This document shows positions 8,295-11,035 of a DNA stretch of 32,000 bases, piece by piece; positions within the stretch are counted from its first letter, which is position 1; each line of letters opens with the position of its first letter. A model generated the notes under the pieces. It saw only the letters and a list, made by a program, of their open reading frames with translations. It did not search any database and was not told where the DNA came from. Source of the DNA: Candidatus Thorarchaeota archaeon (GTDB lineage: Archaea > Asgardarchaeota > Heimdallarchaeia > Hodarchaeales > Hodarchaeaceae). The stretch is from the NCBI GenBank assembly GCA_048882505.1, contig JBHLRO010000018.1, positions 30,001 through 62,000 on the forward strand, written 5' to 3'. The position numbers and the translations under genes are program-made.

Positions 8295-8472
8295 ATGCTC
8301 ATAGGCTCATCTCAATAAGAGATGACTTATAATATCTCAAGGAGAAGTAAAAAACAACGAAGGTACCGGAAAGTACATAGTAATAGTAACAAAACCAACC
8401 CCGTTTTCACTTAATAATAACTGGTTTCCTCGTTACTGTTGCCAAAGACGACCTTAGTGATGTGTATTAATA

Positions 8473-9180
8473 GTGACCAACCTAGATGAATTTTTCGGTG
8501 AAGATCAAGACCGAAACGTGCAAATTTTAGTTGAAATGACAAAAAAATTCTTCTTGTTCGTCTCTCAATTGGCAGAAATTACCGAAGAGCTCGATGCGAA
8601 GGTAAACACACTTAATGCGAGGTTGGATGCCCTTGGTTCAAGTCCCTCAAGGGTAATAACTCAAACAACAAGTGCGCTATCTCCTTCAGTTGCTTCACCA
8701 GTTCCACCTAGCCCTGGTATGGGAGGATCTACACCATCACCTGCACCCCCTTCTGCTAAAATTGCACCACCACCCACGCCTGCAGTTTCAACTTCATCCC
8801 CACCCCCTGTTCCCTCCATGGGAGGAACTGCCCCCCCACCTCCACCTTCTTCAGGGAGCGGAGGCTCAGGTTTTCCGTCTCCTCCCACTCTTCCTTCAAG
8901 TTCGCCAGCACAGCCTACGTCCCCATCTCCTCCATCTGGTCTACCACCCTTGCCAGGGTTTGGTCAATCCACAAGTCCCACAAGTCCCGCTTCGACCTTT
9001 CCCCCTCCCCCTGGTCTCACTCCTCCTAGTTCTGGGCCTCCAGGTGCTGTTCCTCCATCACAACCGCAAGCTCCTGGTTCTCCTGCTCGTATGTCTCCCA
9101 TGGCTCTAAAAGCCCAGATGAATGACGAACTAAGGGCCGCTTTTGCAAGAATTAAGAAGAATTGGGATGATGAGGATTAA
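8473..9180 (+). CDS. Proline-rich protein with N-terminal coiled coil and C-terminal helix plus W-acidic tail (WAVE/WASP-like architecture, hypothetical)
   Basis: Residues ~18-54 form an amphipathic coiled coil, the central region has about 50 Pro, and the C-terminus is 'MALKAQMNDELRAAFARIKKNWDDED'. The coding status is well supported; the function is inferred. Confidence 0.75.
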   Translation: MTNLDEFFGEDQDRNVQILVEMTKKFFLFVSQLAEITEELDAKVNTLNARLDALGSSPSRVITQTTSALSPSVASPVPPSPGMGGSTPSPAPPSAKIAPPPTPAVSTSSPPPVPSMGGTAPPPPPSSGSGGSGFPSPPTLPSSSPAQPTSPSPPSGLPPLPGFGQSTSPTSPASTFPPPPGLTPPSSGPPGAVPPSQPQAPGSPARMSPMALKAQMNDELRAAFARIKKNWDDED

Positions 9181-9320: not shown

Positions 9321-10292
9321 TTATTTCATGGCGCCATACAAAAGGTTAGCTAAGGTCCGTAGGTTTCCCACTCCCCGAATTTCATGTTCATACATCTTGA
9401 TCTCTGAAATTTCGTATTCATTGTACAATTCATGGATTTTTGCTAATGTTTCATTCTGATTGGCAAAACGGGCCGTACAATAAGCACAATGAGGATTCTC
9501 TGGTTGAACCTGGTTGATATAGATTTTGGAGATCGGAAAGGCTACTTCGTATAATGCCTTGATAAGACGCTCCGTTTCCCATAAGGCCATTATTGTTGGT
9601 ATCGTGACTGCCACGAACTCTGCTTCTTGAGGATTTTGCAGATGCTCACGGGCAAATTCTACTTGATCTCGTAGTTCCTCCAATTTTTCAAAAGCTTCTT
9701 TTTCGCTTGGTCCCGATCCCCCTCCAAAAAACGCTTTCATACCAGTCATTATTCCCCCGAGGCGTTTTCGCATTTTAATTAGTCTAAACAGCCATGTCTG
9801 AGTCATTTCAGGGAGTTGTAACAATCTAAGGGTATGTCCGGTCGGAGCTGTATCAAAAATGATGGTATCAAACTCAGGGTTTCTAATGAATTCAAGAAGT
9901 TGGATAAAGGCGACTGTTTCATCTGCACCGGGAGGAGACAAGGTAGAGGGGTCATCACTTCCAAGAAGATCGGAAATAAGCCCTGATGGATCTTGTTGTG
10001 ATACAATATCAGAATAAGAACGCATTGCATTTTGAGTATCTAGTTCAATCGCTTGAAGTCCAGAGACTCCCGTGACTTCAGTATATGTATCACCTCCGAT
10101 TTGTTGGTTTAAGCTGTCCGACACAGAGTGCGCGGGATCCGTAGAAACAAGAAGAGTGCGAATTCCCAAATCGGCAGCCTTAATAGCAGTGGCGGCAGCC
10201 ATGGTAGTTTTTCCAACTCCTCCTTTGCCGCCAAAAAAAAGAAATTTCTTCTCAAATAACGAAGATGACCTATGAGATGACATGAGTCGCAT
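9321..10292 (-). CDS. get3: Get3/TRC40 (ArsA-family) ATPase, single-domain
   Basis: 'GGKGGVGKTT', 'STDPAHS', 'PGADE', 'DTAPTGHTLRLL', a Met/Gly-rich insert, and C-terminal 'CAYC' followed by 'HELY'. Confidence 0.88.
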   Translation of the reverse strand: MRLMSSHRSSSLFEKKFLFFGGKGGVGKTTMAAATAIKAADLGIRTLLVSTDPAHSVSDSLNQQIGGDTYTEVTGVSGLQAIELDTQNAMRSYSDIVSQQDPSGLISDLLGSDDPSTLSPPGADETVAFIQLLEFIRNPEFDTIIFDTAPTGHTLRLLQLPEMTQTWLFRLIKMRKRLGGIMTGMKAFFGGGSGPSEKEAFEKLEELRDQVEFAREHLQNPQEAEFVAVTIPTIMALWETERLIKALYEVAFPISKIYINQVQPENPHCAYCTARFANQNETLAKIHELYNEYEISEIKMYEHEIRGVGNLRTLANLLYGAMK

Positions 10293-10327: not shown

Positions 10328-11035
10328 TTGATAACTAAAGAAAAAAAGACTACTGAAACGCAGATTAAACGGCTTCGGGTGATGAAGAAAATGCGATCTT
10401 ATCAATTTTATCTCCTCGCAATACTAGGCATTGCGTTTGTAGCACTCATTTGCTTATCTACCATAATAAATCCAATTACATTTTCAACTACTGCCCAACC
10501 AACCGTAATGCCATCAGGGAACAATATTGCCTCGAAGATCTCGAAGGAGTATCCTGCTCTAATTGCCACGAAGTCGATTGATAAGACCGAGGTCACTTTA
10601 GGGGAGACAATAATTGTGACGGTTATTATTCGAAACTTCGGAAATCAAACAGCCTATAATGTCACATACATTGAAAGATTCTCAAATCCATGGATTTTTA
10701 ACACCACAGGATTAGGTAAACTTTCTTACACACAGATTGGTCCCAGTGAAACGCGAGTGTTCGGTTATTCTATCACTGCCAACGCGATCGGGAAATTTAG
10801 TATACAGGCTGCCGCTATTGAATATTATGATTCTGAAACCAACGCGATCAGATTCATTACATACACGAATTCGTTAGAAATCACAGCCATGGAGCCCCCT
10901 GAAGATTTTTCTATAGCAAACTTTTATGCAGCCCTCATCCTACTGATTACACTTATTATGATTGATGTTATGCTTTTAATTCGTCTAGTTGCTCCTAAAT
11001 TCAATCGTAGAGAACAACAGGCCAATAATTTTTGA
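10328..11035 (+). CDS. Membrane-anchored Ig-fold protein, TRAP-beta (SSR2)/DUF11-like
   Basis: N-terminal hydrophobic helix, Ig-like 'LIATKSI...GETIIVTVIIRNFGNQTAYNV...IGPSE...IGKFSIQAAAIEY', then a C-terminal TM and basic residues. The true start may be ATG 10391, which follows GGTGA. Confidence 0.7.
   Translation: MITKEKKTTETQIKRLRVMKKMRSYQFYLLAILGIAFVALICLSTIINPITFSTTAQPTVMPSGNNIASKISKEYPALIATKSIDKTEVTLGETIIVTVIIRNFGNQTAYNVTYIERFSNPWIFNTTGLGKLSYTQIGPSETRVFGYSITANAIGKFSIQAAAIEYYDSETNAIRFITYTNSLEITAMEPPEDFSIANFYAALILLITLIMIDVMLLIRLVAPKFNRREQQANNF

Follow-up and report, generated by a model that had tools for sequence, protein, structure and literature searches.

A Hodarchaeales-specific protein family with a constrained, probably self-associating N-terminal coiled coil whose likeness to the WAVE homology domain helix is generic

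The 32,000 nucleotides analysed here, called the window throughout, stem from a Candidatus Thorarchaeota archaeon of the order Hodarchaeales (assembly GCA_048882505.1, contig JBHLRO010000018.1, positions 30,001–62,000). An open reading frame (ORF) on the forward strand of the window, at 8473–9180, encodes a protein of 235 residues plus stop codon, whose GTG start lies 15 nt downstream of an in-frame stop at 8458–8460. The motif N-[LI]-D-[DE]-F-F at residues 3–8 (8479–8496) is followed by a long helix with a continuous heptad repeat (residues 12–56, 8506–8640), a disordered Pro-rich linker (residues 57–208, 8641–9096) that contains the sequence S-G-L-P-P-L-P-G at residues 155–162 (8935–8958), and a basic amphipathic C-terminal helix (residues 209–233, 9097–9171) that runs out into an acidic tail. 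Neither the whole protein nor residues 1–60 or 195–235 matched a Pfam family (hmmscan, E ≤ 10); the Pfam copy used is without the WAVE N-terminal models PF27560 and PF27569, so that this null says nothing on the WAVE homology domain. A preliminary description of the window had aligned residues 18–54 (8524–8634) without gaps to the WAVE homology domain of human WAVE1 and proposed that they may form a homo-oligomeric bundle ancestral to the WAVE/Abi/BRK1 trimer. The letters at these positions are exactly those that it quoted. Sequencing runs holding the sequence comprise sediment or unspecified metagenome DNA from two studies, one of them possibly the source, with no RNA run among them.

The N-terminal helix was predicted with AlphaFold2 (AF2) from a full-length alignment of 23 sequences. 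The prediction contains a short helix at residues 3–6 and a single long helix at residues 12–56 with predicted local distance difference test (pLDDT) values of 82–94. For a 150-residue, 28%-identical homolog from the second family of the order, AF2 likewise returned a long N-terminal helix (residues 3–62, pLDDT up to 98), followed by disorder and a helix at residues 125–149. An unbroken heptad repeat extends over residues 16–54 with V16, T23, V30, V37, V/Y/F44 and L/V/I51 at the a positions (the first letter being that of the protein in the window) and L19, F26, L33, L40, L47 and L54 at the d positions, and alignments show this a/d pattern to be conserved across the family. Over residues 16–40 the e and g positions are hydrophobic as well, a feature kept even in the most divergent members. 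The helix accordingly has two halves of different character: residues 15–40 (8515–8592) are nearly invariant within the genus, and residues 41–55 (8593–8637) keep the a/d pattern alone. The ratio of non-synonymous to synonymous differences per site (pN/pS) is 0.18 for codons 2–40, where pS is saturated at 0.70, and 0.55 for codons 41–55; constraint is much stronger on the half with the wide hydrophobic face than on the half with the canonical a/d pattern alone. Every ortholog starts with M-x-N-[LI]-D-[DE]-F-F at residues 1–8, and D5 and F8 are invariant. Residues ~12–56 are a genuine, selectively constrained heptad-repeat helix, and the continuous repeat inside a confidently predicted long helix agrees with the structural class of parallel homo-oligomeric coiled coils. 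A search of the ESM Atlas with residues 1–58 yielded no feature match; the structural matches were generic single helices (MreC, PilN, phage scaffold proteins) and uninformative.

The protein belongs to a family that is seen only in Hodarchaeales, the order being judged by the names on the homologs. Its members range from 150 to 246 aa (156–246 aa in the initial set of 16 homologs), and all named ones are labelled 'Candidatus Hodarchaeales' or 'Hodarchaeota'. When 400 genomes of the phylum were searched with the N-terminal profile, the family turned up in 21 of 21 other genomes of the same genus and in both genomes of the order's second family, and no convincing member in the 376 other Asgard genomes. 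An exhaustive HMMER search of 1.84 billion representatives returned only four single-stretch matches to the whole profile, three of them full-length proteins of the same architecture and one a fragment of 83 aa; P0145 and P0160 were the two divergent members that it added, and it revealed no fusion of the module to another domain. Common to the members are the N-terminal motif and helix, a linker that is usually Pro-rich, and the basic amphipathic C-terminal helix with its acidic tail.

Several marginal matches were rejected as members. Three long-frame matches in the genome search belong to unrelated proteins, namely V-ATPase subunit D, a DinB-like protein and a coiled-coil protein of 730 aa. 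Two others were weaker still: one in genome G144, which is broken by a TAG stop, and a second match of 51 aa (L033) in the same-genus genome G063. The many multi-stretch matches of the 1.84-billion search are repetitive coiled-coil proteins. The most divergent member, P0160 (L043:219-830:+), has a linker that is not Pro-rich and a contig with a different neighbourhood (dNK-type kinase, ABC transporter). An internal stretch of this protein, which begins RSLRQAVHDEFKSAA, resembles the C-terminal helix, which may therefore be duplicated in P0160.

Three copies of residues 1–58, modelled together with the family alignment built in this analysis, formed a parallel, in-register three-helix bundle with an interface score (ipSAE) of 0.73 (0.73, 0.72 and 0.74 in the individual runs), against 0.01 for the best of three controls. 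The partner chains had pLDDT values of 83 or more, and the runs shared 91% or more of their contacts. Confident contacts connect the same residues of different chains (19-19, 33-33, 37-37, 40-40, 44-44, 47-47 and 51-51), and all three chains touch. The modelled interface is made up of the a, d, e and g positions together with residues 4, 5 and 8 of the LDxFF motif, which pack on neighbouring chains. Of 30 proteins solved as one-chain pairs, 20 attain the ipSAE mark, as does 1 of 23 solved as single chains, in a calibration set of two copies only. The model supports homo-oligomeric, in-register self-association of a copy number that it does not fix, and suggests that the conserved coiled coil probably joins copies of the protein together. 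The wide a/d/e/g face of residues 16–40 would allow a higher oligomer order, too. Modelling hence lends support to the homo-oligomeric bundle of the preliminary description. Since a three-copy bundle was modelled, the predicted object is more than a two-helix coil, but it is unlike the arrangement in the WAVE regulatory complex (WRC), where WAVE1, Abi2 and HSPC300 form a hetero-trimeric four-helix bundle lying on Sra1 and Nap1 (PMC5614565).

The alignment on which the proposed relationship to WAVE was based is correct as far as it goes. The reference peptide is letter-perfect and corresponds to residues 40–76 of human WASF1/WAVE1 (PDB chains 3p8c_D, 4n78_D and 7usc_C); a longer stretch of human WAVE1, residues 24–94, was confirmed against PDB chains in the same way. 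The ungapped alignment has 9 identities in 37 positions, a BLOSUM62 score of 25 and a matching hydrophobic register with hydrophobic or small residues at the a and d positions of both sides. The identity cluster KVNTLNARLDAL spans residues 43–54, and six of the nine identities lie within residues 44–54, in the variable, fast-evolving half of the helix; most orthologs have D/K-Y/F-x-E-L-S-x-K-V-D-Q at this position.

The match is not bound to one register. The same 37-mer reaches an identical score of 25, again with 9/37 identities, when it is placed at WAVE1 start 54 (+14, two heptads downstream); one heptad upstream (−7, start 33) it scores 16 with 6/37, and out-of-register offsets along WAVE1 1–95 give 6 or less. 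Recurrence of a match at heptad shifts is a sign of periodicity, not of position-specific descent. The best register against WAVE1 also differs between members: it is the 40–76 register for the protein of the window and L028, +7 for L027 and +14 for L006 and L011, so that the family has no unique, consistent register against the WAVE/SCAR homology domain. Similar scores occur in unrelated sequence. Among 1.07 million 37-residue segments from the ORFs of at least 100 aa of the organism's own genome, 471 agree with the WAVE1 peptide at nine or more positions and 63 have a score of 25 or higher. For one fixed alignment, shuffles that preserve the heptads, with core and non-core positions kept apart, score as high with an uncorrected p = 0.006, which is not significant because the in-register offsets and about five candidate families must be allowed for.

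Profile comparisons led to the same result. A profile from 14 N-terminal sequences of same-genus members (A2) was compared with all PDB sequences at E ≤ 10 and matched designed three-helix proteins, GCN4 variants, Lpp and the coronin-1A coiled coil with E values of 0.06–4; WAVE1, Abi2 and BRK1, although present in the bank, were not among the matches. A broader alignment of 21 sequences (A3) included two members of the second family that are 28–34% identical over the N-terminal ~58 residues. With this alignment, hhalign assigned WASF1 1–95 a probability of 6.9% (P = 0.005), compared to 3.7% (P = 0.012) for a control with both sides reversed. The WAVE side of this profile-profile test is shallow because the gathered WASF1 sequences are near-identical and vertebrate (the 120 listed of 1,404 matches are all vertebrate WASF1 with 94–100% identity). 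When the family hidden Markov model (HMM) was run against the own-genome ORFs plus WAVE1 1–95, WAVE1 just topped the 3,719 ORFs with 9.2 bits (E = 0.26, Z = 3720) versus 8.2 bits for the best unrelated one. Both HMMER and hhalign picked the +14 register, in which profile positions 30–54 face WAVE1 66–90, instead of the one originally aligned. The similarity to the helix of the WAVE homology domain hence does not rise significantly above that of coiled-coil controls.

BRK1 fared no better. Its hhalign probability was 0.6% (P = 0.09), and the family HMM scored human BRK1 at 3.6 bits and Dictyostelium BRK1 at 6.8 bits, on a par with the reversed controls (0.5–2.4 bits for reversed BRK1, 3.7 bits for reversed WAVE1). 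A local 'TLN..L.AL' likeness to BRK1 is restricted to the variable helix half of this species. When the own genome was searched in six frames (E ≤ 10), WASH_WAHD (PF11945) had no match, and CCDC53 (PF10152) had a single stop-riddled chance match elsewhere and none on the ORF. With residues 11–75 of human BRK1 as the query, nothing was found in the own genome, which is 94.6% complete, at E ≤ 10, a search with no prokaryotic positive control; the Pfam models FragX_IP and Nckap1 for Sra1 and Nap1 had no match in it at E ≤ 1, likewise with no positive control. These searches covered BRK1, Sra1 and Nap1 but not Abi. The helix shows no specific similarity to WAVE or BRK1, and the likeness is that of any two heptad-repeat helices. 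The idea of a bundle ancestral to the WAVE/Abi/BRK1 trimer is not supported: in HMMER and hhalign the scores are no better than those of reversed or unrelated coiled coils, an outcome that the preliminary description had itself named as refuting its proposal, the register is not unique, and the ORF matches neither WASH_WAHD nor CCDC53.

In the linker, AF2 predicted no secondary structure (pLDDT about 50–57), and its length and sequence vary among orthologs in an indel-rich alignment. Family-wide it retains the motif S-G-L-P-P-[LP]-P-G, in which LPP is invariant, divergent members included. Another frame within the gene holds a Leu/His/Pro-rich ORF of 145 aa (8672–9109, forward strand), which has the appearance of a side effect of the CCN-rich linker rather than of a gene. 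The C-terminal helix was predicted with pLDDT values of 81–86; L212, Q215 and L220 are invariant, and pN/pS is 0.08 over 24 codons. W231 gives the acidic tail its WASP-family look. A profile of the C-terminus found no WH2 or VCA chain in the PDB. A reading of this helix as a WH2 was rejected, as it has no support from Pfam or the PDB and its basic 'KK' occupies no fixed column across the family. Residues 219–227 (9127–9153) read E-L-x-x-A-F-A-R-I and resemble the entering helix of an EF-hand. This likeness is probably due to chance because no calcium-binding loop follows, and the weak PDB matches of the 'EL.EAF' type (plastin-2, troponin C), as well as a match to viral IL-10, were discarded as chance.

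The genome that harbours the gene encodes one eukaryote-like actin (Pfam Actin, 440 bits) and gelsolin-domain proteins. A profilin of 122 aa (G000:C4:87137-87493; L035:1498-1866:+) matches PDB 6YRR with E = 1.6e-35 and is, judged by its sequence, the ortholog of this polyproline-binding Heimdall profilin; its Pfam Profilin score is only 20.6 bits and under the cut-off. 6YRR is the profilin of Heimdallarchaeota LC3, for which nuclear magnetic resonance and isothermal titration calorimetry have demonstrated binding to a VASP polyproline peptide containing APPLPA (PMC8410842). Two ORFs of 153 aa (G000:C83:1134-1421 and G000:C30:34128-34415) match Pfam ARPC4, subunit 4 of Arp2/3, above the curated cut-off, with 37.4 and 34.3 bits over profile positions 68–162. 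The pair may be an assembly duplicate since the contig with the C83 copy is short, at least 2.5 kb (L036 = C83:1-2522). In the literature up to September 2026, actin regulation in Asgard archaea is seen as mainly the task of profilins and gelsolins; that account mentions no factor of the WASP/WAVE type and treats formins and Ena/VASP only as eukaryotic machinery (PMC13716822).

Among close relatives the gene is kept in the order CofE-like, FolP, this gene, Get3, TRAP-beta-like and tRNA endonuclease. The genes at 10328–11035 (forward strand) and 9321–10292 (reverse strand) of the window form a divergent pair, in which the gene opposite the Get3/ArsA-type ATPase matches Pfam TRAP_beta at three orthologous loci. 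The pairing of Get3 with the TRAP-beta-like gene is preserved in the relatives of those three loci.

We consider it probable that the segment is a self-associating, parallel, in-register coiled coil, modelled here as a trimer, that serves as the oligomerisation module of a family confined to Hodarchaeales, and that its likeness to WAVE is generic, with no detectable homology. The N-terminal helices of residues ~12–56 would associate with their counterparts into a parallel, in-register bundle, and the N-terminal LDxFF motif would pack on the neighbouring chain. As the helix would join copies of the protein, the flexible Pro-rich arms with their LPPLPG sequence and the constrained basic C-terminal helices would become multivalent. 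The resulting scaffold could work for the actin system, for instance through recruitment of the organism's own profilin. By analogy, the segment may work like the assembly helix of eukaryotic actin regulators, and a link of the protein family to actin is plausible. As the known actin regulators of Asgard archaea are mainly profilins and gelsolins (PMC13716822), the family is a tangible candidate for a polyproline ligand native to these archaea, and a helix that clusters LPPLPG-bearing arms through self-association makes it a reasonable candidate for a multivalent profilin ligand.

Several observations weigh against this explanation. The evidence for self-association is a structure model with a score calibrated on two copies, and coiled coils are readily bundled by such models. 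Three is the sole copy number that was modelled, hence dimers, tetramers and larger states would be compatible with the data as well. With regard to actin, the C-terminal Trp W231 is kept within the genus only and is replaced by I, F or A in divergent members. Pfam WH2, a model that recognises the WH2 motif of a 559-aa vertebrate WASF1 (P0068, a vole record), matches neither the ORF nor the C-terminal helix at E ≤ 10, and a C-terminal VCA composed of WH2 motif, C helix and acidic tail with conserved Trp was not recognised in the protein. Finally, the conserved neighbours are housekeeping genes and provide no functional clue.

A more far-reaching proposal is that the protein acts as a Hodarchaeales-specific actin-assembly factor, whose coiled coil clusters arms that recruit actin-loaded profilin and whose C-terminal helices contact actin or the ARPC4-like proteins. 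We regard it as unlikely. If true, the family would represent an archaeal functional counterpart, convergent or ancestral, of WASP-family or Ena/VASP-type machines, none of which has so far been reported from Asgard archaea.

Alternatively, the face formed by residues 16–40 could bind one or more other helical proteins, making the segment a hetero-oligomeric assembly helix analogous to those of WAVE, Abi and BRK1 but without homology to them. Four of seven heptad positions are hydrophobic over this stretch, even in members of 28–34% identity, and this half of the helix is by far the more constrained of the two. In the homotrimer model, however, the e and g positions are confidently placed inside the interface already, no conserved small helical gene lies in the neighbourhood, and no partner candidate was found, which renders such an assembly unlikely.

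The N-terminal helix could also dock onto the protein's own amphipathic C-terminal helix and create a closed, autoinhibited state, with or without additional self-association. No other part of the protein is as strongly constrained as these two helices (pN/pS 0.18 and 0.08), they co-occur in every member including P0160 with its linker that is not Pro-rich, and the N-terminal helix has hydrophobic surface to spare. Two AF2 monomers had low predicted template-modelling scores (0.25 and 0.32) and no compact fold, although such runs cannot judge helix packing; we think this arrangement quite improbable.

That the N-terminal module is merely a docking peptide with a spacer for a non-cytoskeletal partner, and that the protein has nothing to do with actin, appears very unlikely. 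The position of the motif is invariant, at residues 1–8 in all orthologs, and residues 2–8 (8476–8496) show what we take to be the h-x-x-F-F spacing of PIP-box-like clamp-binding motifs of the FEN1 and Pol eta types. The Gln of the canonical motif is missing, though, nothing else ties the protein to replication, and the modelled trimer, in which residues 4, 5 and 8 pack between chains, would by itself explain why these residues are conserved.

The reading of the helix as a true remote homolog or an ancestor-like form of the WAVE homology domain helix is the least credible of all and extremely improbable: the order of the parts, from helix through polyproline and basic helix to acidic tail, is reminiscent of WASP-family proteins, Hodarchaeales are reported as the sister order of the eukaryotes, and the identities and the narrow lead of WAVE1 over the own-genome ORFs are real, but the drifting register, the control-level profile scores, the PDB matches to other coils, the location of the identity cluster and the hetero-trimeric nature of the WRC bundle, as opposed to a homo-oligomer, all speak against it.

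A real WAVE-type helix in the order nearest to eukaryotes would, if true, date nucleation-promoting factors before eukaryogenesis. Since none of the WAVE, Abi, BRK1 or WASH tests that could be run placed the protein with these families, it should not be filed or cited as a WAVE homolog or ancestor. The probable oligomerisation module nevertheless belongs to a family that is still of use, being sharply defined, confined to one order, strongly constrained and uncharacterised.

Compared with known systems, the closest matches in the PDB are generic parallel coils such as the GCN4 variants, Lpp and the trimerisation domain of coronin-1A, which share the Val/Leu pattern at the a and d positions with none of the matches being significant. 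Unlike these, the Hodarchaeales family has an invariant LDxFF cap, T23 and hydrophobic e and g positions in residues 16–40. With the WAVE/SCAR homology domain (human WAVE1 ~26–81; PDB 3P8C, 4N78 and 7USC) it has in common a long amphipathic heptad helix at the N-terminus, a Pro-rich region behind it and, going by the model, assembly into a bundle. The WAVE helix, however, is part of a hetero-trimeric bundle whereas the Hodarchaeales helix was modelled as a parallel homo-oligomer, and the Hodarchaeales protein is without the meander region and without a Pfam WH2 match. BRK1/HSPC300 (PDB 3P8C chain E; Dictyostelium Brk1, 3PP5) resembles it as a short segment of one coiled-coil helix, and free BRK1 is a homotrimer, the same state as that modelled for the Hodarchaeales helix.

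Ena/VASP proteins carry a C-terminal coiled coil for tetramerisation, and Chlamydia Tarp and Vibrio VopL are nucleators that oligomerise. Their domain order differs from that of the Hodarchaeales family and there is no sequence relationship; what would be alike is the proposed logic, in which a self-associating helix makes Pro-rich, profilin-recruiting arms and a short actin-binding helix multivalent. In this respect the family would stand closer to the Ena/VASP coiled coil or to the oligomeric nucleators of bacteria than to the hetero-trimeric helix of WAVE.

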